Part shown: piece after piece, positions 11,673-30,105 of the stretch
Position numbering within the stretch: the stretch's first letter is position 1
Layout of the letters: each line of letters begins with the position of its first letter
Assembly (NCBI GenBank): GCA_022867325.1
Contig: JALHUR010000146.1
Location: 1 to 45,266, forward strand
Reading direction: 5' to 3'
Source of the DNA: Candidatus Aminicenantes bacterium
GTDB taxonomy: Bacteria > Acidobacteriota > Aminicenantia > Aminicenantales > JAFGBC01
Length of the DNA stretch: 45,266 bases
Translations under genes and position numbers: made by a program
The notes under the pieces: generated by a model
What the model saw: only the letters and a program-made list of their open reading frames with translations
Told to the model about the DNA's origin: nothing
Databases searched by the model: none

Positions 11673-11855
11673 ATGCCCAATCCTAAAAGACGCCATTCCC
11701 CGTCCCGCACGGGCAAACGCCGGGCCCACGACGGACTGACCATCCCCTCCTTCTCCGTCTGCTCCAACTGCGGAACGCCCAAGCTGCCCCACCGGGCCTG
11801 TCCCCAATGCGGGTTCTATCGCGGCCGCCAGGTCATCGAGGGGACCGAGAAGTAG
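11673..11855 (+). CDS. rpmF: 50S ribosomal protein L32
   Basis: 60 aa, starts MPNPKRRHSPSRTGKRRAH, with a zinc ribbon CSNCG...CPQCG. The start codon abuts the yceD stop. Confidence 0.95.
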   Translation: MPNPKRRHSPSRTGKRRAHDGLTIPSFSVCSNCGTPKLPHRACPQCGFYRGRQVIEGTEK

Positions 11856-11872
11856 CGCGACCAGGAATTAAG

Positions 11873-12880: not shown

Positions 12881-12881
12881 G

Positions 12882-13628: not shown

Positions 13629-13691
13629 AGAAGTCCCGCGGGGTTCTCCTAACCGGAGTCCCGGAATTTAGATTTAGAGGAGGAGTGGACA

Positions 13692-13934
13692 ATGCAAAGA
13701 GAAGAACTCCTGAAGAAGGTCAAGAGCATCGTAGCCGACAAGCTGAGCATCGGCGAGGAGCAGATCACCGAACAGGCCTCTTTCATCGACGACCTGGGGG
13801 CGGATTCCCTCGACACCGTGGAACTGGTCATGGCCCTGGAGGACGAGTTCGGCCTCGACATCCCCGACGAGGACGCCGAGAAGCTGACGACCGTCGGCAA
13901 GGCCATAGATTACATCATGTCCAAGGTCTCCTGA
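13692..13934 (+). CDS. acpP: Acyl carrier protein
   Basis: 80 aa with [19 protein letters not shown], which holds the phosphopantetheine Ser. GAGGAGG RBS upstream. Confidence 0.97.
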
Positions 13935-13953
13935 GACTTTCGTTCACTATTCG

Positions 13954-15231
13954 ATGACGGTATCTTCTTCTTCCGCGCAAAAACTATGCCCGCAGAGGCG
14001 GGTTGTCGTCACCGGGATCGGCCTGGTGACGCCCCTGGGCGTCGGGACGGCCCGGAACTGGGAAGCCCTGCTGAAGGGCGAAAACGGGGTCGGCCCGATC
14101 ACCCGCTTTGACGCCTCCCGGCTCTCGACCCGGATCGCGGCCGAGGTCAAGGGTTTCGACCCGATCGCCTTTATCGACAGGAAGGAGGCCCGCAAGATGG
14201 ACCTCTTCATCCAGTACGCCGTGATTGCGGCCCAGCTGGCCGTCGATGACGCCGGGATTTCGCCCGCACGCCTCCAGGGCGACCATTGCGGAGTTTACGT
14301 CGGGTCCGGGATCGGCGGGATCGGCACGATCGAGGACCAGCTCAGGATCCTGATCGAGAAGGGCCCGGACCGGGTCTCGCCCTACTTCTTGATCGCGTCC
14401 ATTATCAACGAGGCCTCGGGCCAAATTTCGATCCGCTTCGCCGCCAAGGGCCCCAACTCGGCCCTGGCGACGGCCTGCTCGACCGGTTGCCATGCGATCG
14501 GCGACTCCTTCCGGATAATCGCCCGGGGCGACGCCGACATCATGATCGCGGGCGGGGCGGAAGCGCCCATCACGCCCCTGGGAATGGCCGGATTCTGCTC
14601 GATGAAGGCCATGTCGACCCGCAACGACGATCCCGCCCGCGCCTCGCGTCCCTTCGACGCAAAGCGCGACGGGTTCGTCATGGGCGAAGGGGCCGGGATT
14701 CTCCTCCTCGAGGAGCTCGGGTTGGCCCTCGATCGCGGCGCCAAGATCTACGCCGAGGTCGTCGGCTACGGGATGACCGGCGACGCTTACCATCCGTCGG
14801 CGCCGTCCCCGGACGGCGACGGCGCTGTCCGGGTCATGCGGCGGGCCATCGCCGACGCCGGGATCGATCCGTCCGAGATCGGCTATATCAACGCCCACGG
14901 GACCTCGACCCCCTACAACGACAAGATCGAGACGGCGGCCATCAAGCGCGTCTTCGGCGCCCACGCGGCCAAGATCGGGATCAGTTCGACCAAGTCCATG
15001 ACCGGACACCTGCTCGGCGCGACGGGCGGCCTCGAGGCCGGGATCACGGCCCTCTGCCTCAAGCACCACATCATGACCCCGACCATCAACTACGAGGTGC
15101 CCGACCCCGAGTGCGACCTCGACGACGTCCCCAATCAGGCCCGGCCCGCCGAGATCCGCTACGGACTCAGCAATTCCTTCGGGTTCGGCGGCACCAACGG
15201 CAGCATCCTCCTCAAGCGCTTCGAAGAATAA
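13954..15231 (+). CDS. fabF: 3-oxoacyl-ACP synthase II
   Basis: 425 aa. Motifs: RRVVVTGIG, active-site ALATACSTG, HGTSTP, GHLLGATG, FGFGGTN. Confidence 0.95.
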   Translation: MTVSSSSAQKLCPQRRVVVTGIGLVTPLGVGTARNWEALLKGENGVGPITRFDASRLSTRIAAEVKGFDPIAFIDRKEARKMDLFIQYAVIAAQLAVDDAGISPARLQGDHCGVYVGSGIGGIGTIEDQLRILIEKGPDRVSPYFLIASIINEASGQISIRFAAKGPNSALATACSTGCHAIGDSFRIIARGDADIMIAGGAEAPITPLGMAGFCSMKAMSTRNDDPARASRPFDAKRDGFVMGEGAGILLLEELGLALDRGAKIYAEVVGYGMTGDAYHPSAPSPDGDGAVRVMRRAIADAGIDPSEIGYINAHGTSTPYNDKIETAAIKRVFGAHAAKIGISSTKSMTGHLLGATGGLEAGITALCLKHHIMTPTINYEVPDPECDLDDVPNQARPAEIRYGLSNSFGFGGTNGSILLKRFEE

Positions 15232-15234
15232 AAA

Positions 15235-16017
15235 ATGAACATCTTCGTTTTCGTCAAACGGGTTCCCGATACGGAGTCCCGGATCCGCATCCAGGACGGC
15301 GGCAAGGCCGTCGCCGAGGAAGGGCTGAATTTCGTCCTCAGCCCCTACGATGAATACGCCGTCGAGGAGGCCCTCAGGCTCAAGGAGGCCAAGGGCGGGA
15401 CGGTCACGGCCGTCGCCCTCGGCCCGGACGAGGCCCTGGTCATTCTCCGCAAATGCCTGGCCATGGGCGCCGACGAGGCCGTTCTGATCAAAGACGTCGG
15501 TCCCGAGACCTACGACGGACTGCGAACGGCGGCCATCCTGGCCAAATATGTGACCGCCAAGGTTCCCCAGTTCGACCTCCTCCTGTTCGGTAAGCAGTCC
15601 ATGGGCGCCGACAACGCCCAGGTTCCATCGATGGTCGGAGAGCTGCTGGGGCTGCCCCAGGTCAACGTCGTCACCAAGCTCGAAATCGAGGGTGGAGCGG
15701 GGACGGCCCTGCGCGAGATCGAGGGCGCCCGCGAGAAAGTCGTTTTTTCGCTTCCCGCCGTGATCAGCGCTCAGAAAGGGCTCAACGAGCCGCGCTACGA
15801 AACGCTGCGCGGGATCATGGCCGCCAAGAAAAAAACCATCCCGGTCGTGACGGTCGCCGAGCTGAGGCTGTCCGCGGAGGAGACGGCCGCCCGGGTCGAA
15901 ATCCTGCGGATCGAAGCCCCCTCGGCCCGCAAGGCGGGGAGGGTCGTGACCGGCCCGGCCGCCGACGCCGCCCGGCAGCTCGTCGAGTTCCTGCACAACG
16001 ACGCCAAGGTCATCTGA
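15235..16017 (+). CDS. etfB: Electron transfer flavoprotein, beta subunit
   Basis: 260 aa, typical N-terminus MNIFVFVKRVPD. The gene starts 3 nt after the fabF stop and is followed by etfA. Confidence 0.9.
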   Translation: MNIFVFVKRVPDTESRIRIQDGGKAVAEEGLNFVLSPYDEYAVEEALRLKEAKGGTVTAVALGPDEALVILRKCLAMGADEAVLIKDVGPETYDGLRTAAILAKYVTAKVPQFDLLLFGKQSMGADNAQVPSMVGELLGLPQVNVVTKLEIEGGAGTALREIEGAREKVVFSLPAVISAQKGLNEPRYETLRGIMAAKKKTIPVVTVAELRLSAEETAARVEILRIEAPSARKAGRVVTGPAADAARQLVEFLHNDAKVI

Positions 16018-16029
16018 GAGGAGCCGGCC

Positions 16030-17007
16030 ATGATACTCGTTTTCCTGGAAATCCGCGAAGGCAAGATCAAGAAGAGCTCCCTGGAAGTATTGAGCGAAGG
16101 CGCGCGGCGCGCCGGCGAGATGAACGCGGCCCTGGCCGCGGCCGCCGTCGGGCCGTTCGACCGCGCCCTGGCGGCCGAGGTCTTCGGATTGGGCGCCCGG
16201 ACTCTCTATCATCTGGATGGCCCGGCCCTCGAGAAGTATTCCTCGCAGGGATTCGCCCTGGCCTTGGCCGGCCTGGCGGCCGAGGTCAAGCCCAAGGCCG
16301 TTTGGATGGCCGCCTCGGCCCTGGGAAGGGACTTGGCCCCGCGACTGGCCGCCAAGCTCAAGGCCGGCCTGGCTTCGGACTGCACCAAGGTCGCCGTCGC
16401 CGGCGGCCGGCTCGAATACACCCGGCCCATCTTCGCCGGGAAGGCGCTGATGACCCTCGCCCTCCAGGGCGATCCCGGGCTGGCGACGCTGCGGCCGAAC
16501 GTTTTCGCGCTCGGCGAAGCCAAACCCGCCCAGGGCGAGGTCGTCAAGAAGACGGCGGCCGTGGCCGAGGGCCAAATCAAGGCCCGCGTCGAGGAGATCC
16601 AGAAGGAGCAGGGCGCGGCCCTCGACGTGACCGAGGCCGAGATCATCGTCTCGGGAGGCCGCGGTCTCAAGGCGGCCGAAAACTTCGGGATTCTGCGGGA
16701 GCTGGCCGCCATCCTGCCCCGGGCCGCGGTCGGGGCCTCGCGCTCGGCCGTCGATTCGGGTTGGATCGACCACCAGCATCAGGTCGGCCAGACCGGAAAG
16801 ACCGTGTCTCCCAACCTCTACATGGCCTTCGGCGTTTCGGGCGCCATCCAGCACCTGGCCGGGATGTCGGGCTCCAAGGTCATCGTCGCCGTCAACAAGG
16901 ATCCCGAAGCGCCCATCCTCAAGGTCGCGGATTTCGGGATCGTGGGCGATCTGTTCGAGGTCATCCCTCCCCTGAAGGACGAGCTCAAAAAAGCCCTGTC
17001 GGAATAG
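16030..17007 (+). CDS. etfA: Electron transfer flavoprotein, alpha subunit
   Basis: 325 aa with the C-terminal FAD-binding block [39 protein letters not shown]. Confidence 0.9.
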
Positions 17008-17019
17008 ATCCGGCAGCGC
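16988..17019 (+). repeat. Left copy of the 32-bp direct repeat bracketing the island (attL-like); covers the etfA 3' end
   Basis: aaaaagccctgtcggaAtagatccggcagcgc. It is identical to 30074-30105 except for one position (17004 a vs 30090 c). It comprises the last 6 codons of etfA, the stop and 12 nt downstream. Confidence 0.85.
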
Positions 17020-17029
17020 GCTTACGCCC

Positions 17030-17137
17030 GGCGTCATCGCGGCTATCCGGACATTCGGGGACAGGATTAATTTTCATCCCCGCCTCCACTACCTGGTGAC
17101 CGAGGGCGGAGTGGACGCGGCGGCCGAGGGGAATTGA
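17030..17137 (+). pseudogene. Remnant of an IS91/ISCR-family (HUH, Y2) transposase gene
   Basis: The frame reads ..PGVIAAIRTFGDRINFHPRLHYLVTEGGVDAAAEGN with the stop at 17135-17137. From memory of the family, this resembles the TFG..L.F.PHxH.L...GG block that holds the HUH motif. Only about 35 codons remain, with no start and no Tyr motifs. Confidence 0.4.
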
Positions 17138-17247
17138 CACCGCCATGCGGCCGGCGATATAATTCCGTCATGATCAGGGGGAGAGATTCGTCGCTCATAG
17201 TGAGAATTCAGCCCGCACGGAAAAAGGAAAATCCTATAATCCAAGAG

Positions 17248-17403
17248 GAGGTGTATCTGAAGGAATACGAAAGCGTATTGGATTGCAGAGTCAGTTTGCG
17301 GGAGTACATCGATTTTTACAATCAAGAAAGGGAGCACCAATCCCTTGATTACCGCACTCCTGCGAAGGTTCATTTGGGTCAACTTGCTTTAAGGGCGGGT
17401 TGA
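17248..17403 (+). pseudogene. C-terminal fragment of an IS3-family (rve/DDE) transposase
   Basis: EVYLKEYESVLDCRVSLREYIDFYNQEREHQSLDYRTPAKV carries the YN..R.H.SL.Y.TP tail signature found downstream of the DDE core. The catalytic core is absent, and the N-terminal 38 codons of the track ORF look like unrelated read-through. Confidence 0.6.
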
Positions 17404-17495
17404 ATGATCAAAATGGAGTCCACCTGTTTTGCGTCAATAAATGTTCTGGACAAACCAGACCATTATATTTTGCCCAAGTTTCGAGCGAGCATTTT

Positions 17496-17575
17496 GCCTA
17501 ACGTTTCCGGTGTTTGTGAAGTTGCCCGAAGGGCAATTTGGGGAAGCGTAGCTTCCCACAAACACCGTGTTAGAT
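17496..17575 (+). other. Integron attC-like recombination site 1 (80 nt)
   Basis: R'' GCCTAAC (17496-17502, fits RYYYAAC); 5-nt spacer; outer stem cggtgtttgtg (17508-17518) pairing with cacaaacaccg (17557-17567). Inner hairpins are ttgccc-gaa-gggcaa and gggaagc-gta-gcttccc. One t follows, then R' GTTAGAT (17569-17575, fits GTTRRRY). The architecture matches site 2, with compensatory stem changes. Confidence 0.6.
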
Positions 17576-17622
17576 GAAGTTGCTGCCGATTTTCTTTTTT
17601 TAACTCCCCTCTATCAAACATG

Positions 17623-18390
17623 CTAACGCTCTCCTAAAAATGACTTTCTGACCTCGTCATTTTTAAGAAGATTTATTGCTATATCTTCAAAAGCGATTTC
17701 GCCTATTTTAAATACATACCCTCTATTTGCGTACTCTAAAGCCACTCTGGCATTCTGTTCCACAAGCAGAATAGTTGTTCCATCTATGTTAATCTCCTTT
17801 ATCTTTTCAAATACAGTGTCTATATAATTCGGAGAAAGCCCCAGAGATGGTTCATCCAATAGAAGCAGTTTTGGTTTTAGCATCAGGGCTTTGCCAATAG
17901 CAAGCATCTGCTGTTCACCACTGCTTAATGTTCCTGCCCTTTGTTTTTGCCTCTCTTTAAGGATAGGGAATATGCTGAATACCTTCTCTATTAGTTGTTT
18001 CACATCAGTCTTCGGTTGTTGGTTTCTTTTCCCCAGCACTGATAACTTAACACTGGAAACTGTATACGCACCCATTTCCAGATTCTCTAAAACGGTCATT
18101 GAAGTGAAGACCCGTCTACCCTCTGGCACCAGACAAAGTCCTTTCTCAACCAACTGATAAGGCTGTTTGCCATTTATATTTTCTCCTCTAAATAAGACCT
18201 CTCCTGATTTAGGTTTTACCAAGCCACAAATTGCCTTTAGAGCGGTAGTCTTGCCAGCACCGTTTGGACCTATCATTGCCACAATTTCTCCCTCATTTAT
18301 ATTGAGAGAGATATCATCCAGAGCAAGGACAGTATCGTAATATGCTGTTAAGTTTCTTACCTCAAGAAGCACTTTCACGCCTCCTGCCAA
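17623..18390 (-). CDS. livF: Branched-chain amino acid-type ABC transporter, ATP-binding protein (LivF type)
   Basis: 255 aa. Walker [10 protein letters not shown], signature LSSGEQQML, Walker B LLLLDEPS. The substrate is not inferable. Confidence 0.88.
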
Positions 18391-19144
18391 GATATGCTTC
18401 TATAACTTTTTCATTTTTAATTACCACTTCTGGATGACCTTCTGCAATCTTTTGACCATAGTTCAATACAATGATATTATCAGAAATATTTGTTACTACC
18501 TTCATATCGTGCTCAATAAAAAGAATCGTTTTGCCTTTATCTTTTAATTTCTTAAGCACATCAAGTATCTTGACCCTCATATTAGGGAAAACACCTGCCG
18601 TTGGTTCATCCAATAAAAAGAGTTCGGCTCCCGTTGCCAGGGCTCGGGCTAATTCAAGCAATCGTCTCTGTCCATGAGATAAATTCTGTGCAAGTTCGCC
18701 TTTTTTATCTGTAAGACCTACCAATTCAAGGTATTCTAAAGACTTCTCTCTATTTCTCTGCTCCTCGTCTTTCATAACCGTTGCTTGAAGAAGTGCGGAT
18801 ATAAGACCTTCACCTTTATCATATTTGGTTGCGAGCAATATATTCTCCATAACCGTAATCTGCGGGAAAAGCCGGATATTCTGAAACGTCCGTGAGATAC
18901 CTAATCTGGCTATCTTGTAAGGTGGCAGATTAATAATCCTTTTATTCCTAAAATGTATATCTCCAGATTGAGCATTGCAGAATCCAGAGATTATATTAAA
19001 AACTGTTGTTTTCCCCGCACCATTAGGACCTACCAAGGCGTTTATAGTGGCTGGTTCAATAAAGAAGTTCAGGTTATCTACTGCAACAAGTCCGTCAAAT
19101 TCCTTAGAAAGATTTTTAACTTCTAATAACATGTCGCCACTCAT
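18362..19144 (-). CDS. livG: Branched-chain amino acid-type ABC transporter, ATP-binding protein (LivG type)
   Basis: 260 aa. Walker [25 protein letters not shown], Walker [11 protein letters not shown]. Confidence 0.88.
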
Positions 19145-20010
19145 TTGAACCGATACACCCCCATTATCCCTTGAGGTCTTTTAAACATAAGGACTACAAG
19201 CAACAATCCATATATCATCTGTCTCATTGGCGCTGCAATTGAAGAAGGCATTCCCAAAAACCTCAGAAGTTCAGGGAAAACGACCAGAATTACCGCTCCC
19301 ACCATAGAGCCTGATATACTTCCCATTCCTCCAAAGATAACCATAAGAAGGATGGTAATGGATTCCATTACATTGAAACTTGATGGGTCAATAAAGGTTA
19401 TGTAATGGGCATAAAGACTTCCAGCAATACCGGCAAAGAATGCCCCGATAATGAAAACTAATAGTTTGTATTTAATTGTATTCTTCCCTAATGCCTGTGA
19501 GGCAATTTCATCTTCCCGGATAGACCTCAATATTCTGCCAAACGGAGAATTTACTATCCTGTTAATAATAAAAATAGTAATTACCACAAAAACCAAAACC
19601 AGTAATAGATAAGACCATATTTCTGACAATTGAAAACCGGCAATTGAAAACCCTGGTATTCCAGGCAGTCCCATTGGTCCTCTTGTAAGGGATACCCAGT
19701 TCTTGGCAATGGAATACACAATAACCCCCAAACCGAATGTTGCCAGAGCAAGATAATCCCCTTTTAACCGCACTGCTGGATAGCCTATTACAATGCCTGA
19801 GAATGCTGCCACACAGGCTCCAATTAACAATCCTATCCAGGGAGATAAACCTATATTCAATGCGAGCAGGCTTGAGGTATATGCCCCAATACAAGAAAAG
19901 GCTGCATGACCCAGTGTTGGTAGTCCAGTATAGCCCACAATGAGATTAAGGCTCAAGGCAAGGATTATGTATATCCCAGCAATAACAAGTATATGTAAAA
20001 GATATTCCAT
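19141..20010 (-). CDS. livM: ABC transporter permease (LivM type)
   Basis: 289 aa polytopic membrane protein with the LivM-like block [11 protein letters not shown]. It overlaps livG by 4 nt. Confidence 0.85.
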
Positions 20011-20014
20011 GTCT

Positions 20015-20911
20015 TTAAATTGTCTCCTTTTCTGTCTTAGTACCCAGGAAACCCGATGGTCTTATCAAAAGAAAAATTATGAGAATTACAAAAGCAATAC
20101 AATCCTTCCATCCGGCTGATATCTTCCAGATACCAAGATTCTCAGCTAATCCCAGAAAGAATCCACCGAGCACTGCACCTGGAATACTGCCGATACCACC
20201 AATAATAGAGGCAATAATTCCCTTTAAGAGAGCACTAAATCCCATAGTGGGCTCAATATTGGTCTCAAAAGAAATAAGTATCCCAGCAGCACCAGCTAAT
20301 GCAGAGCCTATTGCAAATGAAGTTAAAATTATCTTTTCTGGATTTATGCCAACAATATTTGCTGCTATGGGATCATCAGACACAGCCCTCATTGCTTTGC
20401 CTAGTTTTGCTTTCTGGATAAAGAGCCAGAGCAGTATCATAAGAATGATCGAGACTGCTAAAATCAAAATCTGGATATCAGTAATCACTGCACCAAGAAA
20501 ATGATGTCCTTCCCTGACAGGTCCTGTTCTTATTGTAAGGATCTGTGCCCCATAGATAAGTTGAATTAGATTTTGAAGGAAGATAAAGACACCAAACGAT
20601 GCGAGGAGAAAAATCATGTTAGATGCATTTTGTCGGCGAAGGGGATAATAGACAAATCTATCTATCCCAATGCCGAGGAGGGCAGAAAGGGCAATGGATA
20701 AAAAAAAGGAAAGTGGGAAATTGAGGTGTAATAAGAAAATTAGGGTATAAGCAAAATATGCCCCTGCTGTATAGACCACACCATGAGCGAAGTGAAAGAA
20801 CTTTACTGTGCGGTAGATAACGGTGAAGCCTATAGCAATAAGGGCATAGATACTGCCTGCAATTATTCCGTTTAGTATGAGTTGCTCAAGCAATTTATTC
20901 CTCCCTAGCAA
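20015..20911 (-). CDS. livH: ABC transporter permease (LivH type)
   Basis: Polytopic membrane protein with N-terminus LEQLILNGIIAGSIYALIAIG. The probable true start is the TTG at 20893, preceded by GGGAGG and a 6-nt spacer. The track start at 20911 is also a TTG. Confidence 0.85.
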   Translation of the reverse strand: MLGRNKLLEQLILNGIIAGSIYALIAIGFTVIYRTVKFFHFAHGVVYTAGAYFAYTLIFLLHLNFPLSFFLSIALSALLGIGIDRFVYYPLRRQNASNMIFLLASFGVFIFLQNLIQLIYGAQILTIRTGPVREGHHFLGAVITDIQILILAVSIILMILLWLFIQKAKLGKAMRAVSDDPIAANIVGINPEKIILTSFAIGSALAGAAGILISFETNIEPTMGFSALLKGIIASIIGGIGSIPGAVLGGFFLGLAENLGIWKISAGWKDCIAFVILIIFLLIRPSGFLGTKTEKETI

Positions 20912-20996
20912 ACTAATAACTTATAAATTGATGACTAATACGAGTCATTGCAATGAGACCACAGATGATACCAGGAATAACACCATCAAAGACAAG

Positions 20997-22742
20997 TCAG
21001 TTGGCAACGTCTCGATACACTATTCGGATTTGCCCCCGCTCATGCAATTCAAAGAAACTCTTGATTGGTAGAATATGGAATTTTTGTGTTTCAAGAGCTT
21101 GCGGCATTTTCAAATTCTTTTCCATCTCATCTGTCGCGCTTTTAAGTAATCTAGAGTATAATGAATAGCTATCCACGCGTCGCTTGGCTTGTCCTCCGAA
21201 ACGAACATTGAAAACATCGTCATAATAGAAGGTATAAAAGGGTTCTTTCTTATCCCAATCTACCTCGTAATTAAACCACTTTTCATACTGCAATATATTT
21301 ATTCCCTGCTTTGCGCAATTAAAAATGATCCAGTTACTCGAAAGTTCCTCTATTTTAATCTCAACAGGGTTACCGCGCCCAGCTAACATTGAGAGATAGC
21401 TGCACAGTTCTTTAGTGTCACTTGGAACAAAGACGGTATACACTTTGTAATTATCAGGTGTATCAATAAAATTATGCATAAGAAAATTAACAACTTCATT
21501 GTAATCCTTTTCTTGATTAGTTTTTCTATCTTTCCATCTCTTTCCTATGATTTCTATTATGTTTTTGTTACCCTCCCATTTCTGGTCAGCAGATATATAA
21601 ATATACCTATGAACCTTTAGCCTACTATCTCCCGATTGACGTTCTTTAGCTTGTTTTTTCAATTCATTAGCCCAGTCTAAAATACTATCGCTCGTAATTA
21701 AGCTCAACTCAGACCACATTGTTAGCGGCCAATTTGCTATTATCTCATCTGAAACTGGCAAAATCTCGCGTGAAAAGATTCTGAATTCTCTATCCATTTC
21801 GCTTTTTATTTCCTCAAATCTGTGAGTACCCATCTTTAAAGGCTCAACGAACCATAATTCGGAATGCGTAGCTGAAAAGCTATATCCACTGTCCCTTATT
21901 GATTCTACAACTTTTTGAGACAAAGATGGCAAGATAGTAGAGAAATATTCAATCTTTTTTGCATAATCTGGATGCATTAAAATGCAATTGTCTAACAACT
22001 CCTCCCGAAATTTCTTTATTTCATTTTGTCTTAACCTCCCTTCGGTCGGGATGATAATGCATTTCGACATAAACGAGAAGATGATTTTGTTAGAAAAAAC
22101 AATAATGGGGTCAAATATCTGAGGGAGATGATGTATGTAGAAATAGGAATTACTGCATTGGCGAATCATACGGGCTAACTCCTCTTTTCGAGGAAAGGGC
22201 AGTTCTGTATCAATAACGAGCAAGGGTATATTTTCATAGCCCGACTTTGTACGCAGGAGAGATTCTAGAGAAAAGGGAGTACCATTTTCTTTAAAACTGC
22301 CCAATGCAATCACAGGCTCAGCAGGCTTTTGACCAGCAAATGCTTTCTTCAGATTATCTTCGATAGTGCCTAAGTCTTCAAAAGCTATGATAATAAAGTT
22401 CTCGCCGCTTGTCTTATAATCACGGAGATTTCTTTCGGCAGCTTCAGCCTTTTCTTTGTGTTCCTGCTCTCTCTTTAGAAACGCACGCCGTTCGCCTTCT
22501 AGAGAACTCCGTTCAAATTCCCATTTTCTTTTAAGTTTAAACCCTTTCCATAGCTTCACTAAAGCCCCAAGGGACAGGGACCACACTACCCCTACAATTA
22601 TTTGGGTCAGCAGAAGGCGGTCTTTCGCAAAGTCCGGGAAAAATATCCCAGATATTATCTCGAACAAAACACCGATTGTGGCAAGTATCCACATAATCCA
22701 CGTCTGTCGTGAAGGCTTTTGGTTCGCATAGTCGTTGTTCAT
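20997..22742 (-). CDS. Membrane-anchored protein of unknown function (581 aa)
   Basis: The ATG at 22742 is preceded by GGAGG and a 5-nt spacer (the track start at 22748 is GTG). It has two N-terminal hydrophobic helices (WIMWILATIGVLFEIISGIFF; IIVGVVWSLSLGALV), a charged coiled-coil-like stretch, then about 450 aa with no motif I recognise. Confidence 0.7.
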   Translation of the reverse strand: MNNDYANQKPSRQTWIMWILATIGVLFEIISGIFFPDFAKDRLLLTQIIVGVVWSLSLGALVKLWKGFKLKRKWEFERSSLEGERRAFLKREQEHKEKAEAAERNLRDYKTSGENFIIIAFEDLGTIEDNLKKAFAGQKPAEPVIALGSFKENGTPFSLESLLRTKSGYENIPLLVIDTELPFPRKEELARMIRQCSNSYFYIHHLPQIFDPIIVFSNKIIFSFMSKCIIIPTEGRLRQNEIKKFREELLDNCILMHPDYAKKIEYFSTILPSLSQKVVESIRDSGYSFSATHSELWFVEPLKMGTHRFEEIKSEMDREFRIFSREILPVSDEIIANWPLTMWSELSLITSDSILDWANELKKQAKERQSGDSRLKVHRYIYISADQKWEGNKNIIEIIGKRWKDRKTNQEKDYNEVVNFLMHNFIDTPDNYKVYTVFVPSDTKELCSYLSMLAGRGNPVEIKIEELSSNWIIFNCAKQGINILQYEKWFNYEVDWDKKEPFYTFYYDDVFNVRFGGQAKRRVDSYSLYSRLLKSATDEMEKNLKMPQALETQKFHILPIKSFFELHERGQIRIVYRDVAN

Positions 22743-22776
22743 ACACACCTCCTCTTAATCACAAAAGTATATTCGT

Positions 22777-23832
22777 CTATGACCCCACAATCCCTTCGTT
22801 TCGCTTCGGAAAGCACAATCCGGCCCACCGAAGCTCCCCATACTTTTTATTCTTTGTTTCGCTGCACGCTCGCCAAAGCTCTGCCAACGAAAAATCTCGA
22901 ACATTCCCTACCGTCTCATCCGCTTCACAGACCTTTACATTTCCTATGTCATCCATATACATGCCTGTTCGCGAAATATCGCAGGGCAACCCTCCCGGAA
23001 AATCTGAAGGTTCTGACAATCTAATTCCTTTTCGCTCCCTTAATTCAATGAGTTTTTGTGTTAGAGATTGGATCTCACAAGGCTTTGGCGAATAATTGGC
23101 TCTTGCTATAGGGTTCTTCATTTTGCCGAGGGGCATTAGGGGACATACAAGAGGATAGATGTTGTGATCCAGTGCGAAGTCAAAAACAGAAGGGACTTCG
23201 TCATAAGTTTCTTTTAGTAGAACGATAGCAAAACCCAACCTCGATGGAAAATGTTTGTTGAAACCACATGAAAGCAAACGTTCTAGCGCTCTATCTCTTA
23301 AGATAGAATATCCTTTGCGCTGTACGACCTCATCCTTCTCATACTTTATCATTACTGTTACGCCAATATCGTATAACTTTTGCACAATTTCATCGCAGGA
23401 GAGTCGATGAGCCTTTTGTGCGAGTTCCTCCGAACCTAATGTGTCCCCACAAGTAAAAAGAATCGGTATCATTCCTAACTTCCGAATCGTGGCCAGAAGG
23501 AATAGTATGTCCTTTCTAAGCATCGGTTCACCCTCTCCCAGGATCTTAATACTCTTCCCCCCCAACGCTGCGAACTCTTCAAAAACACGAAGTACTTCCT
23601 GCTGTCTTAATTTGCCTTTCTTGTTCACATACAGAAAACCACAGTAGGTGCAATTATTCAAGCAACGACCGGGTAAAGCGCAATCCATTGTCAAAGGAGT
23701 ATTTTTGCGGCGGGCTTCTAGGATTTCATCTTTTGGAAATGTCCCGCCGTTGTATCCGAAAACTGTCTGCGGAAGTTGGATTGCAGTTTTACTTCCCCGA
23801 GCAGTACAAATGCGGTTGGCCTTTTCACTCAT
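22777..23832 (-). CDS. Radical SAM enzyme with SPASM/twitch-like C-terminal region
   Basis: CX3CX2C motif CLNNCTYC; GEGEPML (GGE-like SAM motif); C-terminal GNVKVCEADETVGNVRDFSLAELW. The probable start is the ATG at 23832, which overlaps the upstream stop (ATGAGTGA). The track start at 23907 would overlap the binding-protein gene by 83 nt. Confidence 0.8.
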   Translation of the reverse strand: MSEKANRICTARGSKTAIQLPQTVFGYNGGTFPKDEILEARRKNTPLTMDCALPGRCLNNCTYCGFLYVNKKGKLRQQEVLRVFEEFAALGGKSIKILGEGEPMLRKDILFLLATIRKLGMIPILFTCGDTLGSEELAQKAHRLSCDEIVQKLYDIGVTVMIKYEKDEVVQRKGYSILRDRALERLLSCGFNKHFPSRLGFAIVLLKETYDEVPSVFDFALDHNIYPLVCPLMPLGKMKNPIARANYSPKPCEIQSLTQKLIELRERKGIRLSEPSDFPGGLPCDISRTGMYMDDIGNVKVCEADETVGNVRDFSLAELWRACSETKNKKYGELRWAGLCFPKRNEGIVGS

Positions 23833-24964
23833 ACAGCACAAGCTTCCCTTGCTCATTGAAAGTGTAAAAGTAGAAGCGTCTCCCAGTTGTCTGCCCATTC
23901 TGGTCAAACTTGATCTCTCCTGTCACCCCTTGGACGACAAATCCTGGATCACGCAGAGCTTGGATGATCTTTTCGTGGTCTAACGATTTTGCTCTATTTA
24001 TACCCTCGGCTAGCACAAGAATTGCATCGTAACCATAGGGAGCGAAGGGTGGAATGGGACCATAGCGCGCCTTATATTTTTGTACGAATTCTTTTGCAGT
24101 TGGGACAGCCTCCCAAGGAGGTGATAGGAAGCTGATATAAACATTTCTACAATTTGTCCCTGCTAGTTTTTTGAAATGCTCGTCAAAACAGCCGTCTCCA
24201 AAAACAAATACTATTTTCAGCCCCAGTTCCTCTGCCTGTCTCACTAGTATTGATCCCTCGGGCATCATACCGCCATAAAATATTGCTTCTGGTTTATAGC
24301 TCTTTGCCATTAACAACACACCACGATAATCTCTTTCTCCAGGGATCAACGCCTCAGAAAGCAGAACATTACCTCCCAAAGATTCAAAATGTTCCTTAAC
24401 TTGCGTGGCTATTCCCTTGCCATAGGATGCGTTATCATGAATTATCACTATCGAGTGATCCTTGAGACGATTAAATATAAATTCCGCCCCTGAAATTCCC
24501 TGCATATTATCGGTCGGGGCAAATCTAAAAACGTTCTCAAAGCCCTGCTGGGTAAGAATGGGGTTGGTTGGAGATGTAGCAACGTAGGGCATCTTGCGGC
24601 TGTGGAAGATTTTTGAGGCAGGGATTGCGTTGCCGCTATTGGGATATCCTATTACACCTATAATGTCGTTTCGGGATGTAAACAGATGAGCAATGTTTAC
24701 TGCGTCCGCAGGCTGGGCCTTGTCATCCTGCGCTAAAAGAGTAACTTTCTTCCCAAGAAGTCCACCCTTATTGTTAATATCCTCGACGGCCAACTCTGCG
24801 GCTCTCCTTTGAGGTTCCCCATAGACCGCACCTTCTCCAGTCAACGGCAAAATAACCCCAATTTTTATCTCCTTCGGCTCATTCTTTGTCTGAGTGACAA
24901 TGAGCAGGATGGCTAAAGCCACAACTACCACGATACCGATTCCAATCCAAATGTTTCGTTTCAT
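23825..24964 (-). CDS. ABC transporter substrate-binding protein (LivK/Peripla_BP_6 type), N-terminal membrane anchor
   Basis: 379 aa. N-terminal hydrophobic helix IWIGIGIVVVVALAILLIV with no lipobox Cys, then KIGVILPLTGEGAVYGEPQRRAAELAVEDINNKGGLLGKKV. AGGAGG lies 9 nt upstream of the ATG. Confidence 0.85.
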   Translation of the reverse strand: MKRNIWIGIGIVVVVALAILLIVTQTKNEPKEIKIGVILPLTGEGAVYGEPQRRAAELAVEDINNKGGLLGKKVTLLAQDDKAQPADAVNIAHLFTSRNDIIGVIGYPNSGNAIPASKIFHSRKMPYVATSPTNPILTQQGFENVFRFAPTDNMQGISGAEFIFNRLKDHSIVIIHDNASYGKGIATQVKEHFESLGGNVLLSEALIPGERDYRGVLLMAKSYKPEAIFYGGMMPEGSILVRQAEELGLKIVFVFGDGCFDEHFKKLAGTNCRNVYISFLSPPWEAVPTAKEFVQKYKARYGPIPPFAPYGYDAILVLAEGINRAKSLDHEKIIQALRDPGFVVQGVTGEIKFDQNGQTTGRRFYFYTFNEQGKLVLYE

Positions 24965-24992
24965 AATTCACTACCTCCTTTCCTCAAAAATT

Positions 24993-25021
24993 TTTCTAGC
25001 CTCTCGTTGTCCCTTTGTCAA
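24993..25021 (-). promoter_or_regulatory. Sigma70-type promoter of the binding-protein/rSAM/ABC operon
   Basis: On the minus strand: TTGACA (25021-25016), a 17-nt spacer, then TAGAAA (24998-24993). This lies about 30 nt upstream of the ATG at 24964. Confidence 0.45.
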
Positions 25022-25070
25022 TTTTTTTATTTATCCCTCTCTCTTCTAAACCAATATCGCCAGCAATTTC

Positions 25071-25149
25071 ATCTAACGGTCTCGGGCTATACGAAGTCGG
25101 CGTAAGCCGATTTTGGCGAACGAAGTGAGCCGTATAGCCCGTGTTAGGC
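25071..25149 (+). other. Integron attC-like recombination site 2 (79 nt)
   Basis: R'' ATCTAAC (25071-25077); 5-nt spacer; outer stem cgggctatacg (25083-25093) pairing with cgtatagcccg (25131-25141). The inner hairpin is tcggc-gtaa-gccga, and a second, imperfect hairpin is ggcgaac-gaa-gtgagcc. One t follows, then R' GTTAGGC (25143-25149). R'' is the exact complement of the TTAGAT that follows the G of site 1. Confidence 0.62.
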
Positions 25150-25195
25150 GATGGGGCGACACACGCAAATGAATCATATGGTTTATTCATCCCAG

Positions 25196-26176
25196 TCATT
25201 TCATCTCCTTTTCTTTCAAAATTTCTTTTTCTAAATCCCGGAGAGATATTTTTTGGCCGTTTTCGTATATAAAAGTGTATCCGTTTTTATTTTCATCTTC
25301 TACCATGGTTAATTTATAAAACATATCTCTACTCAACTCGTATAATTTCTTAAAATCTGCTATAGTTTTGTATGCACCACACCAACATTCTGTTGAGGTT
25401 CCTAAAGAATGTAGAAGAGTTTTTGGTATGCCGTTATTATTGATATAGGCTATTACATCATCATCTGGCCAATAAAAAATTGGACTGACAGAGAGACACT
25501 TGAAACTTGGGTGATACCATATCGGCATGTATTGTTTTCTTACATTAGATTCCGCTGCCCTTATTCCATCAAAAACAACTTTCTGCTCTTTTATGCTATC
25601 TAAATATTCCTTAATAGGCTTGATTTTTAATTCTCTGCAACACCATCTATACTTAAAACTTGGGATACCCCATTCTTTTGCTAAAGTAAAGTAATCTACT
25701 TTTGGTCTCACTATTTTGAGATTAACTTCTAAATATTTGCAGACTTTTTTTACGTATTTTGTATTTTCAGGGAGCCCGGCTGTTGTATCCACATAAATCG
25801 CAGTTAAATCATTACCATCTTTTTTTGCAAAGTCTTTTAAATAAACTAGAGTAGCAAGACTATCCTTTCCTCCGCTAAATAGAATAAATGATTTTCTGCT
25901 TTTTAAAAGCCTTTTAATATCACTCTCCAATATAGAGACTTTATCGCGTATATTATTGGATTGTTCTTGATCAAGCTCACATACTTCTCTTACTTTCTCC
26001 CGTTTAATATGCAGAATGTAAATAGGTTTCAATGTCGGGCCTTTAATCCACCTAGTAATAATCAAACCTTTTTCTTTGCATTTGGGGCAATTAACGTTAA
26101 GACTTTTCAAATTAATTCCCGCAAAGGCTTCTTCAATTGGTGCCCACCACTTATTATTTGAATTAGAGCTATCCAT
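25196..26176 (-). CDS. PAPS reductase-family PP-loop ATP pyrophosphatase (DndC/IbrA-like) with an N-terminal Cys-containing extension
   Basis: 326 aa. PP-loop FILFSGGKDS; family signature RWCCRELKIKP; C-terminal ECWCGAY; N-terminal CPKCKEKG. The start overlaps the upstream gene by 8 nt. Confidence 0.8.
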   Translation of the reverse strand: MDSSNSNNKWWAPIEEAFAGINLKSLNVNCPKCKEKGLIITRWIKGPTLKPIYILHIKREKVREVCELDQEQSNNIRDKVSILESDIKRLLKSRKSFILFSGGKDSLATLVYLKDFAKKDGNDLTAIYVDTTAGLPENTKYVKKVCKYLEVNLKIVRPKVDYFTLAKEWGIPSFKYRWCCRELKIKPIKEYLDSIKEQKVVFDGIRAAESNVRKQYMPIWYHPSFKCLSVSPIFYWPDDDVIAYINNNGIPKTLLHSLGTSTECWCGAYKTIADFKKLYELSRDMFYKLTMVEDENKNGYTFIYENGQKISLRDLEKEILKEKEMK

Positions 26177-27125
26177 TTATTGCCTCCACAGTTCCTATCA
26201 ACCTTAATCCTCTTTCTCTGAAGTCTGTAAAAGGAACCGGAGAAAAGATTTTTTCACCCTCATATGTTGGTGAAAGTTGAGAAGCTAAACTCTGTTGAAT
26301 TAAACAGTCCTCTATTGAATCAACAGAAAGTTTCTCGTCAATTACTTTGAGATATTTATTGACTGTTTGATGCCGTTGTAATTTCTGTAATATCTCGGAT
26401 GTGCCTACATGTGTTCTATTGGTCTTTCGCATCGCCTCGTAAAATTTTACACCAAGGAAAGCACTTTTTTCAATTCGTAGTACTTCTTTTTGCCAGTATA
26501 TGACTACGTTGTCAACAGCTCTTTGAAAATTATCTAAAGAAGATGAGTTCCTGATACACTCCGAGATCTGATTTAATATTTTTCGAAGTTCTAAGTGCCT
26601 CATGGTGAATGCTAAAATAGAAGTTTCTAAAATTCTTGAGATATCTGAAATTTCAATTGGAATGAGTTTATATTCTTCTCTAGGATTACTTTTAATGGAT
26701 CTAAATGTATCTCTATGCATTGTGTTGCATATTAATAAGGCAAAAGTATCTCTTGGATTTATCTGTGACTGAGAGCAAAAATCTTCACAGTGTCTAATGG
26801 ACTGTGCAAATTCTTGTGACCATTGATTAGCTCCAGTTTTTAATGTTGCTTCTATTGTTAGGCAGAAGCCATAGCAATAAGCAATTGTGTCTGGTCCGCC
26901 CGCTGGGGCTCTAGAAATAGTAGGATTGATGTTGCCGCGCCAAGTTACACGATGAGAAATGGTAGGCTGGTCGTTATCAGTGCTGTAGAATGGTAAATGA
27001 AGGATATAAGCAAATGCCTCAGCAATTAGTTTCTCAAAATATGTTGATCGCAACGATTGCTGAAATTGCGCTAGATATTGGTCAAGGTTTTTTAAGGTTC
27101 TTAAAATTGTCCGGGAGGATGCCAT
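26169..27125 (-). CDS. Hypothetical protein (318 aa), possible PD-(D/E)xK-like nuclease fold
   Basis: FEKLIAEAF helix, then GGPDTIAYCYGFCLTIEATLKTGANQWSQE. This is a PD...E.T.K arrangement resembling, but not matching, the canonical D-(D/E)xK. No family recognised. Confidence 0.65.
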   Translation of the reverse strand: MASSRTILRTLKNLDQYLAQFQQSLRSTYFEKLIAEAFAYILHLPFYSTDNDQPTISHRVTWRGNINPTISRAPAGGPDTIAYCYGFCLTIEATLKTGANQWSQEFAQSIRHCEDFCSQSQINPRDTFALLICNTMHRDTFRSIKSNPREEYKLIPIEISDISRILETSILAFTMRHLELRKILNQISECIRNSSSLDNFQRAVDNVVIYWQKEVLRIEKSAFLGVKFYEAMRKTNRTHVGTSEILQKLQRHQTVNKYLKVIDEKLSVDSIEDCLIQQSLASQLSPTYEGEKIFSPVPFTDFRERGLRLIGTVEAING

Positions 27126-27135
27126 AACTACACCT

Positions 27136-27702
27136 TTATCTCTCCTCTTTTTTTGCTTTCTGTGTTAACCAATCCGCAACTATACCTTTTACCAGCTCTG
27201 CTGGCTTAATTTTCAAGGTTCTGGCATGTTTTATGATTGCTCGATACATTTCGTCATCAAAATCCATCACAAAAATATGTAGTCCCTTCGGCTTTGCTTC
27301 TAAAACTACTTTCTTTGCCTCTTTAATAGGTACATTAGCGCCCTTAACGAGCCGTTTTATATCCCTCACATCTTTTGATAATGAATTTATAAATGCCTCA
27401 GCTGCAGCAATCTGTTTGGATGGATCTTTAAGCACTGAAATCTCTCTTATAATATCAATACCATCTATTCTTCTATCCGAAACTAACTTCTGTATTTCCT
27501 CGGGTAGCTTTAAAGTTGTCAAAAATTCTCTTATCATTTCAGTAGAAAGTCCTACCTTCTCTGCTACGACTTTTTGTGAACCGTATAATCTAACAAGATA
27601 GTCAAAAGCGTTAGCAACAGTAATCAAATCATCTGGTCTTTTTTTTCTTTTTGTATTGGCAAACACTATAGCTAAGGCGGCTTCTTCATTTAGTTTTCTC
27701 AT
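27136..27702 (-). CDS. HTH protein, paralog of the ParB-like protein without the ParB N-domain; RHH-like C-terminus
   Basis: 188 aa. VAEKVGLSTEMIREFLTTLKLPEEIQKLVSDRRI aligns by eye with VAEHLGVSPQTVRNYLGYAAVPEPIKKMVDEGKL of the upstream gene. The C-terminus HIFVMDFDDEMYRAIIKHARTLKIKPAELVKGIVADWL parallels RVTIDLTPRVADALEQACQKYKSDAEDITMEALEDWL. There is an ATGA start/stop overlap with the upstream gene. Confidence 0.7.
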   Translation of the reverse strand: MRKLNEEAALAIVFANTKRKKRPDDLITVANAFDYLVRLYGSQKVVAEKVGLSTEMIREFLTTLKLPEEIQKLVSDRRIDGIDIIREISVLKDPSKQIAAAEAFINSLSKDVRDIKRLVKGANVPIKEAKKVVLEAKPKGLHIFVMDFDDEMYRAIIKHARTLKIKPAELVKGIVADWLTQKAKKEER

Positions 27703-28490
27703 TTAATAAACCCCCTTCGCTTAAGCCAATCTTCAAGAGCTTCCATTGTTATATCTTCAGCGTCGCTTTTGTATTTTTGACATGCTTGTTCTAGAGCATC
27801 AGCAACCCTTGGTGTTAAATCAATTGTTACTCTCTTGAACTTCTGCTCCTTTACAGTTTTTACAATCTCGGCTGGTGTTTTTTGAGGATTCTCTCTTTCC
27901 ACATCAATTATTTTTCTTCTGTCTTCACTGCGAGGGGTTTCCTTAATTTTCTCTGCGATTTTCACAGCTTTTTTTTCATCTGAGATGTTTTTTGCTATTC
28001 TGGTAGCGGTAGAAGCACTTAGTTTCCCTTCGTCTACCATTTTTTTAATAGGTTCTGGTACCGCAGCATATCCTAGATAATTTCTTACAGTTTGGGGTGA
28101 TACACCAAGATGTTCTGCCACTTTATTAACAGAGCTAAACTTGTTCAACAACTCTGTAGCAACTTGCATTTTATCACGATATTCAAGTTCGAGGCGGTGA
28201 ATATTCTCGCTAAAAGATTTGATAGTAGCATCTGTTTCATCCTTTACAATAGTTATAAGGGCAGGAATCTCTCTCAATCCCAGTTTTTTGCAGGCAAGAA
28301 GGCGTCGCTGTCCAATTAATAGTTCGTATCTGTCTTCCTTTTGGAAAACCACAACTGGCTGCTGAACACCTATTTCTCTGATACTGTTAGCAAGTTCATC
28401 AATGCCCTCCTCAAGATTAGATTTTCGGACATTTGAAACGCTTATATCTATTTTATCCAATGGTAGGTATTCAAATTTTAATTTTTTCAT
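27699..28490 (-). CDS. ParB/Srx N-terminal domain protein with HTH and RHH-like C-terminus (IbrB/DndB-like position)
   Basis: The start is taken at ATG 28490 (MKKLKFEYLPLDKI), with GGAGAGG 11 nt upstream; the track start is 28532. ParB N-domain blocks are LPLDKIDISVSNVRK, IDELANSIREIGVQQPVVV and the arginine motif LLIGQRRLLACKKLG. The HTH is VAEHLGVSPQTVRNYL. Confidence 0.8.
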   Translation of the reverse strand: MKKLKFEYLPLDKIDISVSNVRKSNLEEGIDELANSIREIGVQQPVVVFQKEDRYELLIGQRRLLACKKLGLREIPALITIVKDETDATIKSFSENIHRLELEYRDKMQVATELLNKFSSVNKVAEHLGVSPQTVRNYLGYAAVPEPIKKMVDEGKLSASTATRIAKNISDEKKAVKIAEKIKETPRSEDRRKIIDVERENPQKTPAEIVKTVKEQKFKRVTIDLTPRVADALEQACQKYKSDAEDITMEALEDWLKRRGFIK

Positions 28491-28534
28491 TTTTATCAAT
28501 CCTCTCCATATGTCTACCTTTCGCCTAAACACTA

Positions 28535-28563
28535 AGTATACGACGTATGGCGTATATTTTCAA
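28535..28563 (-). promoter_or_regulatory. Sigma70-type promoter of the ParB/PAPS-reductase operon, with a palindrome in the spacer
   Basis: On the minus strand: TTGAAA (28563-28558), a 17-nt spacer, then TATACT (28540-28535). On the plus strand, aagtatacg-acgtatgg-cgtatattt (28534-28559) forms an 8/9 inverted repeat that overlaps the -10 element and the spacer. Confidence 0.45.
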
Positions 28564-28748
28564 TTTATCCCAACTTCGTTATTTGTACCAGTTAGCATGG
28601 TTATCATGACACTATGGAGCCTGTTGCGTGATTCGCATTTGAAGCGCGTCTGACATGGATTTTTATAGGCTACGCCGGAGTGCCGAGAGTTCTCGGCGAG
28701 CGTTTCGAGTAGAAATCATTTTCCACGATTCTTGCGATTGTTGAAGCG

Positions 28749-30073: not shown

Positions 30074-30105
30074 AAAAAGCCCTGTCGGACTAGATCCGGC
30101 AGCGC
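30074..30105 (+). repeat. Right copy of the 32-bp direct repeat bracketing the island (attR-like)
   Basis: aaaaagccctgtcggaCtagatccggcagcgc, 31/32 identical to 16988-17019. Weaker gapped similarity continues for about 18 nt (..ta.gc..gg.gtcatc). Confidence 0.85.

Follow-up and report, generated by a model that had tools for sequence, protein, structure and literature searches.

Within a 45,266-nt stretch of DNA from a Candidatus Aminicenantes bacterium (assembly GCA_022867325.1, contig JALHUR010000146.1, positions 1 to 45,266; analysed at its full length and referred to below as the window), two short structured elements, named here E1 and E2, lie in an island of low GC content. We consider it very probable that they are cassette recombination sites, functionally equivalent to attC, and belong to an integron-like system of gene capture distinct from canonical integrons. 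This system is apparently widespread and undescribed; it functions like an integron, yet lacks two features that define membership. In an earlier note, made from the sequence alone, both elements had been read as attC sites. This reading holds in part: the elements belong to a family of structure-conserved cassette sites with RYYYAAC/GTTRRRY ends and attC-like behaviour (position 3' of cassette genes, arrays, hand-over of a hexamer between neighbours, and a recombinase with an attI-like site in relatives), but they are not canonical attC sites.

A family of folded sites on the gene-antisense strand

Both elements were recovered with every feature listed for them in the earlier note, as checked by sequence and by folding as DNA. 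On the plus strand, E1 runs from GCCTAAC to GTTAGAT and E2 from ATCTAAC to GTTAGGC, i.e., they are imperfect palindromes bounded by RYYYAAC and GTTRRRY. They have a common layout, which consists of a 5-nt spacer (G followed by NNNN), an 11-bp outer stem (cggtgtttgtg/cacaaacaccg in E1, cgggctatacg/cgtatagcccg in E2), an aag junction, a first hairpin, a ttt(g/t) junction, a second hairpin (weak in E2, with 3 bp) and a single t. The plus strand of each folds as DNA into a three-way junction, with −24.4 kcal/mol for E1 (z −6.8) and −19.6 kcal/mol for E2 (z −4.0), and in neither case did any of 200 shuffled sequences equal this value. The spacer arms of 5 nt and 1 nt resolve into a G.T pair and a 4-nt bulge, located on the arm of the presumed cleavage site. 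This bulge contains the only unpaired bases of the outer part; there is no symmetric central spacer. The 1-nt spacer and the missing L boxes, entered as caveats in the earlier note, are thus real departures from canonical attC, and the extrahelical bases for which it had suggested to search by folding are absent. The pattern CTAAC-N50-75-GTTAG occurs twice in the window as compared with 0.24 expected occurrences. Our covariance model R2 scores the plus strands of E1 and E2 at 88.3 and 85.5 bits, respectively, and the minus strands at 15.3 and 14.1 bits; run with filters off, it gave no third copy in the window, where all other matches reach at most 13.8 bits. E1 begins 47 nt past the stop codon of a livF-like gene (17623) and E2 46 nt past that of a PAPS-reductase-like gene (25196). 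Short open reading frames (ORFs) of 56–67 aa overlie the recombination sites in the window (24996-25199, minus strand), at locus L001 (4668-4871) and at locus L101 (8969-9139 and 16514-16672), and are called as genes in the latter two; they are probably spurious.

By pattern scanning and covariance models we detected more than 60 relatives of E1 and E2 in Bacteria and Archaea. A 21-base pattern derived from the two elements matched 15 genome contigs, and although the bases fixed by the pattern are not independent evidence, all 15 matches possess complementary 11-bp stems of differing sequence joined by the same junctions. The genome matches span at least nine phyla including Archaea, with hosts among Bipolaricaulota/Acetothermia, Nitrospira, Anaerolineae, Dehalococcoidia, WOR-3, Aerophobetes, Halobacteriota and Methanofastidiosia. 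Covariance model R1 revealed extra same-strand copies about 1 kb apart (E-values of such home-made models are rough). One locus, L009, carries two sites 6.4 kb apart on opposite strands (892-965, minus; 7307-7386, plus). In the alignment of 44 members, pairing is seen in 95.2% of the cells as compared with 38–43% when the partners are slid, and compensatory changes affect 21 of the 29 pairs and 274 cells, a result that none of 500 shuffles reached; the claim that the stems covary while staying paired, previously made from two copies, was therefore borne out. Their 11-bp stem runs without interruption, 96.5% of it being paired. The ends of the family follow the pattern nnnTAAC...GTTRnnn, with some GTTAT variants.

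We found that the genes flanking the sites lie, at every locus, on the strand opposite to the orientation of the model, which is the one that the earlier note had called plus. For 43 of the 44 sites a gene-sense ORF ends upstream, at a median distance of 33 nt, and the gene-sense form of the site reads RYYYAAC-A-stem...stem-NNNN-C-GTTRRRY. Accordingly, with the arrow marking the crossover, E1 reads ATCTAAC-A-CGGTGTTTGTG...CACAAACACCG-GAAA-C-G↓TTAGGC on the minus strand and E2 GCCTAAC-A-CGGGCTATACG...CGTATAGCCCG-AGAC-C-G↓TTAGAT. The model strand is the more stable one in 43 of 44 members and retains two near-invariant G.T wobbles (130 G.T against 17 A.C). Since this folding strand is antisense to the mRNA, it argues against a role at the RNA level and agrees with the "bottom strand" of integron attC sites. 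In turn, as the genes and the recombinase of the relatives are located opposite to the plus reading, the plus strand of the window corresponds to the bottom strand and its cassettes are read from the minus strand. The orientation proposed earlier is thus reversed: judging from the relatives, the former place of the recombinase and attI would be to the right of the array, above 28.5 kb, and not to the left at the debris of an insertion sequence (IS).

Recombinase, attI-like site and exchange of cassettes

At locus L011, a 293-aa tyrosine recombinase encoded on the gene strand heads the array, and homologues are found within a few kb of the sites in 4 of the 15 genome loci (L011 and, as fragments, three others). 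A metagenome search with the L011 recombinase gave more than 573 relatives, of which 80 loci were kept. In these, the site model has 38 matches, each in the orientation of the recombinase. The 168 kb searched downstream of it contain 36 of them, and the 242 kb searched upstream contain 2. At least one site is present in 17 of the 30 loci that offer at least 1.5 kb of downstream sequence. At L025, two sites (5524-5612 and 9502-9589) precede the recombinase gene, which appears to be embedded in the array.

Neighbouring sites are connected by a hand-over rule. The final 7-mer of one site is the reverse complement of the first 7-mer of the next at 53 of 60 variable positions (15 adjacent pairs, 8 of them perfect), a value reached by none of 100,000 permutations, whereas the two 7-mers of a single site agree at only 45 of 92. 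The pair in the window conforms at 7/7 positions, its terminal 7-mers being complementary between the elements (GTTAGAT of E1 with ATCTAAC of E2, GTTAGGC of E2 with GCCTAAC of E1) and not within each. A lone GTTRRRY matching the 7-mer of the first cassette was detected 85–128 nt past the recombinase stop codon in 8 of the 15 metagenome loci tested. The same holds for L011 (about 110 nt past the stop) and L085 (163 nt), which brings the aligned attI-like regions to ten. Their context is conserved as ...GACAtTGTCGTtTATGAACRA/GTTRRRY-gaaat (the slash preceding the 7-mer) and includes two direct repeats.

The function of this attI-like site is illustrated by loci L098 and L099, two metagenome contigs with the same recombinase and the same chromosomal context, which differ in the first cassette after the recombinase (Table 1). 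They are 100% identical up to ...ACCAAGTT. Beyond this point, L098 continues with GTGC-gaaagg, a 4.7-kb methylase/GmrSD/AAA cassette and the site GCACAAC-A-stem-AAAA-C-GTTATAC, and L099 with AGGC-gaaatt, a 3.5-kb AlwI restriction-modification cassette and the site GCCTAAC-A-stem-ATAC-C-GTTATAC. Identity restarts at CGTTATAC and is then free of mismatches. In either locus, the 7-mers of the cassette start and of its own site match. Cassettes are thus exchanged at the attI-like site in natural populations. The break points place the crossover within C-G-T-T, as G↓TT in integrons, and each cassette therefore carries a TTRRRY hexamer complementary to the first 7-mer of its own site. The content of both loci further shows that multigene cassettes are normal cargo. 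As the L098 site is a plain hairpin, the three-way junction is not required, and the inner part of a site can vary. E2 and the first site in the array that follows the L099 recombinase are 91% identical, with unrelated cargo.

A complete platform, L101, is carried by a plasmid of a cultured Chryseobacterium, which makes the system directly testable. Its recombinase gene (7803-8846) is accompanied by the attI-like site ...ATATAAACAA/GTTGGGA, by four nearly identical 134-nt sites without a bulge, in which TCCCAAC leads straight onto a 12-bp stem, and by one site of the bulged type. This array also contains an IS110 element and a group II intron, reminiscent of the group IIC introns that target attC.

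As for the recombinase itself, it combines the Phage_int_SAM_4 and Phage_integrase domains and retains a complete RKHRHY catalytic set. The additional domain of IntI is absent from all 23 aligned members. The match to VchIntIA, the best one in the PDB, is interrupted where 66 IntI residues face 24, and the alignment with IntI1 (33% identity, with a C-terminal PLD motif in common) has 45 gap positions at IntI1 residues 196-250. Among the NCBIfam models, XerA_Arch scores 243.9 (cut-off 220) and the integron integrase model TIGR02249 215.6 (cut-off 265); such score comparisons do not separate an IntI from a XerA affiliation. An ordinary IntI, as assumed earlier, is not supported by the enzymes of the relatives. 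In databases its members bear names such as "XerD", "integrase" or "site-specific tyrosine recombinase/integron integrase".

Many of these recombinases possess a conserved N-terminal domain of 66 aa, seen in 82 of the 120 close homologues among the matches listed, i.e., about two thirds, for example at L026 (9794-10000), L023 and L017. Its consensus is ..V.FPYNP..V.KVKTI.G.RWHPEEK.WSFP.... The only significant PDB match of its profile is the HARP domain of SMARCAL1 (4o66, E 0.0017), and one member, P0093, reaches Pfam HARP (26.1 bits, cut-off 25). HARP is a structure-specific DNA-binding domain. We rejected a strict link between the HARP-like domain and three-way junctions: the domain is missing in the recombinases of L011, L059 and L020, which still head arrays, those of L011 and L059 being of the three-way-junction type. 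In L023, L025 and L027 the linker between the HARP-like and SAM domains has a repeated insert (...VIARDKVP(K/Y)QSHTENCHSE...SESHSSHSP), and similar DNA occurs untranslated upstream of the L011 recombinase gene; it resembles a small repeat element whose in-frame insertion is tolerated.

Orphan array and its surroundings in the window

The island at 17.0–29.5 kb has 36–45% GC as compared with about 64% outside, and is enclosed by 32-nt direct repeats that are 31/32 identical and spaced by 13,086 nt in the repeat search, thus delimiting 13.1 kb (Table 1). The left repeat overlaps the stop codon of etfA, which would be consistent with insertion of a larger element at the 3' terminus of this gene; an integrase for such an insertion is not present. 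All island genes adjoining E1 and E2 lie on the minus strand. Neither a recombinase nor a remnant of one was detected in the window by tblastn and the family profile in six frames (best E 0.65); the array is therefore orphaned, comparable to a CALIN (cluster of attC sites lacking an integron integrase).

Table 1. Features of the array in the window and of the informative relatives
Feature	Sequence	Coordinates	Strand	Remarks	Basis
Site E1	window	17496..17575	− in gene sense	attC-like, closes cassette B	sequence, DNA fold, R2 score
Site E2	window	25071..25149	− in gene sense	attC-like, closes cassette A	sequence, fold, R2 score
Cassette A	window	25077..28528	−	3,452 nt	Pfam, PADLOC; start hexamer fits family consensus
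Cassette B	window	17502..25076	−	7,575 nt; putative boundaries	ORFs, Pfam; G↓TT crossover in relatives
Putative third cassette start	window	17404..17501	−	TTAGGC-aaaatgc...	sequence; hand-over rule
IS3-type transposase fragment	window	17134..17403	+	rve_3/rve_2 C-terminal piece	Pfam
Candidate decayed attI-like site	window	28523..28589	−	...ATATACGCCATACGTCGTATACTTAGTG-T↓TTAGGC	alignment with attI-like regions of ten relatives
Left 32-nt direct repeat	window	16988..17019	+	overlaps etfA stop codon; bounds island	
Right 32-nt direct repeat	window	30074..30105	+	bounds island on other side	
Differing first cassette after recombinase	L098 / L099, two metagenome contigs	11409-16192 / 11409-14973			identical flanks
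L101 platform	Chryseobacterium sp. SNU WT5 plasmid NZ_CP041688.1	7803-16843		complete; cultured bacterium	

Cassette A begins with TTAGGC followed by gaaa (28528->28519), which is the family consensus for a cassette start, and continues, after TTAGGC-gaaagg, with genes for a ParB_N/HTH protein, an HTH_ParB protein, a protein related to AlwI and a PAPS reductase of the SspD/BrxP/DndC-like type (28532->25196), followed by E2 up to its G. The AlwI-like protein corresponds only to the C-terminal part of AlwI-type (nicking) endonucleases. This cassette looks like a DNA-modification or defence module. Cassette B starts with TTAGAT and a promoter-like region, encodes a LivK-type binding protein, a radical SAM protein, a 583-aa protein and a LivH/M/G/F-type ABC transporter (24964->17623), and ends with E1 up to its G. 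The 583-aa protein and the radical SAM protein are located inside the liv-type operon (20997-23907, minus strand); the former, of unknown function, has no family match in Pfam or PADLOC, and the latter gives weak viperin-like matches (E about 2e-6). If circularised, each cassette would restore an R box as a perfect pair, GCCTAAC/GTTAGGC in cassette A and ATCTAAC/GTTAGAT in cassette B. By analogy with the crossover in the relatives, the circular junction of cassette B is predicted to read ...CACCGGAAAC-G↓TTAGATgaaattgc, and deletion of a cassette would join the body of E2 to TTAGGCaaaatgc. The distal end of the array is truncated by the IS3-type fragment, which cuts the third cassette.

At the opposite end, upstream of cassette A, a weak candidate for an attI-like remnant has T instead of G as its junction base. 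A promoter-like TTGAAA-17-TATACT (10/12; 28563->28535, minus strand) is part of it and is directed towards cassette A, in the position expected of a Pc-like promoter; promoter-like matches in this region are not above chance. GCCTAAA...GTTAGCA (28523-28597) was considered as a further site and rejected, as it forms no folded site and an attI-like remnant fits better. GTTAGGC at 30043, also rejected as part of a site, is a chance 7-mer beside a hairpin at the end of a SIMPL gene. To the right of the attI candidate, neither R2 nor the recombinase profile gave a match. Two other features are found there. An ORF of 115 aa (28749-29096, plus strand) matches the model for the defence reverse transcriptase UG14 only over its last 96 positions; this truncated gene lies beside the place where the recombinase should have been. 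A candidate attC of the canonical type (29133-29222, plus strand), GTATAAT-AAATC-GCTGGAGCGGAC...GCCGATCAGC-TCGCGGTC-GTTTGGC, lies 37 nt past this ORF and directly before the SIMPL gene. It scores 16.3 bits (E 0.096) with R3, our proxy for a canonical attC covariance model (built from six archaeal attCs validated with IntI1), and folds no better than shuffled sequences; its L'' is identical to the L'' of a published Hadarchaeota attC. Together, the reverse transcriptase fragment and this weak candidate hint at a second array, of the ordinary integron type, which may abut the first one head to head.

Explanations and comparison with known systems

Intact relatives have the following layout. The recombinase, a tyrosine enzyme from the IntI/XerA branch, is devoid of the IntI additional domain and, in about two thirds of the close homologues listed, has the HARP-like N-terminus. 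About 100 nt downstream of its gene, on the same strand, lies an attI-like site with two direct repeats, which ends in ...AACRA-G↓TTRRRY. The cassettes come next, in the same orientation, and every one of them is closed by a site of the form RYYYAAC-A-(11-bp stem)-(variable inner part, often a three-way junction)-(stem)-NNNN-C-G↓TTRRRY. Analogy with integrons and the strand-asymmetric conservation suggest that single-stranded DNA of the gene-antisense strand (plus in the window) forms a bulged hairpin, that the recombinase cleaves between A and C of RYYYAA↓C, and that replication resolves the resulting junction. The 4-nt bulge, possibly with the HARP-like domain, may replace the extrahelical bases and the IntI additional domain in the recognition of strand and site; we infer that the loss of these bases and the loss of the domain that reads them go together. 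In the window, two intact sites would bound two unusually large multigene cassettes, one defence-like (3.45 kb) and one with transporter and radical SAM genes (7.58 kb). Such operon-sized cassettes could have been delivered by an integron-like route and then stranded, which would explain the 13-kb foreign island at the 3' end of etfA. Because the scores of E1 and E2 are at the upper end of those in the family, both sites are expected to be still usable by a cognate recombinase supplied in trans.

Several points weigh against this explanation. The alignment, A3, was fitted to the model and its pairing counts are somewhat inflated. The relatives are mostly metagenome-assembled genomes (MAGs) or metagenome contigs, and their taxonomic assignments, including the archaeal ones, therefore rest on binning. 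A detectable site occurs in only 17 of the 30 recombinase loci with enough flank, and as the L011 and L059 enzymes lack the HARP-like domain, this domain is not essential for site recognition. The window holds no recombinase, so that activity of E1 and E2 there is a prediction, and the attI remnant is weak. The cassettes of the window, of 3.5 and 7.6 kb, have their own promoter-like regions and exceed the 0.6–1.9 kb typical of the family, although cassettes of 3.5–4.7 kb do occur in L098 and L099. For the new site family, single-strand folding and replicative resolution are themselves inferred from integrons and from the strand asymmetry.

Other explanations were examined in the light of the same observations. 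The sites could be canonical attC sites in plus orientation, served by an ordinary IntI whose gene was lost with attI on the left at the IS debris. Their RYYYAAC/GTTRRRY ends, the imperfect palindrome and the integron-like hand-over all fit, IntI enzymes tolerate very diverse attC sequences (Ghaly et al., 2022, PMC9668308), and R2 weakly matches the bottom strands of class 1 attCs (15 and 10.5 bits), so that both site types have R boxes in common. We nevertheless regard this as very unlikely: the genes and recombinases of the relatives place the platform on the right, the sites have neither the symmetric central spacer nor extrahelical bases, and the recombinase linked to them lacks the IntI domain, no IntI having been seen beside the relatives. 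Moreover, R3 finds two of four class 1 attCs (53.4 and 41 bits), yet, with filters off, gives no match at E1 or E2 at E≤10. Another reading keeps the same sites and recombinase and assumes a classical double-stranded reaction of the Xer type, with two sequential strand exchanges. The XerA-type NCBIfam class agrees with it, as do the collinearity of the recombinase with XerA, without the domain that reads extrahelical bases, and an attI-like partner that is probably double-stranded, as in integrons. However, a duplex site would not need pairing to be kept while the stem sequence varies freely, or G.T wobbles to be kept on one strand only; a 28–30-bp core with two inverted arms and a 6–8-bp overlap is missing at the crossover, which instead marks one end of an 80-nt palindrome; and many of the recombinases possess a HARP-like domain, of a type that binds DNA in a structure-specific manner. 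This reading is unlikely in our view.

Two explanations leave recombination aside. That the sites are elements at the RNA level, such as stabilisers in the 3' untranslated region, terminators or structured small RNAs, agrees with their strong structure and their position 46–47 nt past stop codons, but the better-folding, wobble-keeping strand is antisense to the flanking genes. Rfam gave no match at E1 or E2 with gathering or permissive thresholds, a T-run is missing and neither site was called in the terminator scan, while the hexamer hand-over, the lone attI-like 7-mer and the swap of cassettes at GTT would be left unexplained; such a role is highly improbable. Selfish palindromic repeats placed between genes by chance, similar to repetitive extragenic palindromes, bacterial interspersed mosaic elements (REP/BIME) or miniature inverted-repeat transposable elements (MITEs), would likewise be short, intergenic and present in many genomes. 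Yet the 45 kb analysed contain only two copies, both in the foreign island and none in host DNA, orientation to genes is strict, arrays are one-sided and downstream of one recombinase family, neighbouring copies hand over their 7-mers, and neither target-site duplications nor an association with transposases was seen. We find this last explanation hardly credible.

Integrons are currently defined and sought via the additional domain of IntI and the canonical attC model. If E1 and E2 indeed belong to a distinct integron-like system, surveys of cassette arrays, CALINs and cross-domain transfer would undercount such arrays or mis-assign them under names such as "XerD" or "integrase". In addition, the step from Xer to IntI would gain a living intermediate or sister form. 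The system would also offer a natural experiment, in which a tyrosine recombinase picks a folded strand without extrahelical bases; candidates for this choice are the 4-nt bulge, the two fixed G.T wobbles and the HARP-like domain. We see an even chance that it represents a second integron lineage, in which IntI/XerA-like recombinases without the IntI additional domain, often fused to a HARP-type domain, would escape standard integron-integrase detection, act on bulged hairpins and move single genes as well as entire defence or transport operons across phyla and domains, in Bacteria and Archaea of subsurface, sediment and hot-spring habitats as well as on a Chryseobacterium plasmid.

Compared with canonical integrons, such as the class 1 integrons and the Vibrio cholerae superintegron with VchIntIA and its repeats (VCR), the new system likewise has a tyrosine recombinase gene adjoining an attI-like site and tandem co-oriented cassettes that end in a structure-conserved RYYYAAC/GTTRRRY palindrome. 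A G↓TT crossover hands the hexamer to the next cassette, the fold is biased to the gene-antisense strand, and genes for defence, toxins and methylases are enriched among the cargo. In contrast, the new recombinase lacks the IntI additional domain of about 40 residues, stays under the TIGR02249 cut-off, and often has a HARP-like N-terminal domain; its gene runs in the direction of the cassettes, and the attI-like site lies past its stop codon. As for the sites, class 1 and validated archaeal attCs follow the scheme RYYYAAC-5 nt-L''(extra bases)...L'-6 nt-GTTRRRY, with 5–7 nt in both arms, whereas the new sites are asymmetric (5 nt and 1 nt), with the 4-nt bulge beside the cleaved R box, a perfect 11-bp stem and an inner part that is often a conserved three-way junction. 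The models of the two types barely cross-detect.

Similar to the archaeal integrons, in which attI is immediately downstream of intI (Ghaly et al., 2022, PMC9668308), the new system forms cassette arrays in Archaea and has site types common across domains. Unlike it, the archaeal IntIs possess the additional domain and the nine tested archaeal attCs are canonical, with the form RYYYAAC-AAnTC-L''...L'-6 nt-GTTRRRY (Ghaly et al., 2022, PMC9668308, Data S9). The motif strings of the new site family are absent from the supplementary files of that study that we examined. Close homologues of IntI without the IntI insertion, like the new recombinase, were noted among simple tyrosine recombinases termed "integron-like" (Smyshlyaev et al., bioRxiv 10.1101/542381). 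Yet, those homologues were linked to IS91 and IS3 elements and not to cassette arrays with structured sites, and neither such sites nor attI were described there. Our literature search, which was incomplete in coverage, gave no description of the present sites, attI-like site or arrays.

Finally, the new recombinase resembles that of the Xer/dif systems (XerA/dif, pdif modules, CTX phage) in that it reaches the XerA_Arch equivalog score. CTX phage integrates via a folded single-stranded attP, i.e., enzymes of the Xer type can act on folded single strands. Unlike in Xer/dif, the crossover takes place at one end of an 80-nt hairpin instead of within a 28-bp dif-like duplex core, and the recombinase genes are not housekeeping single-copy genes but adjoin cassette arrays.

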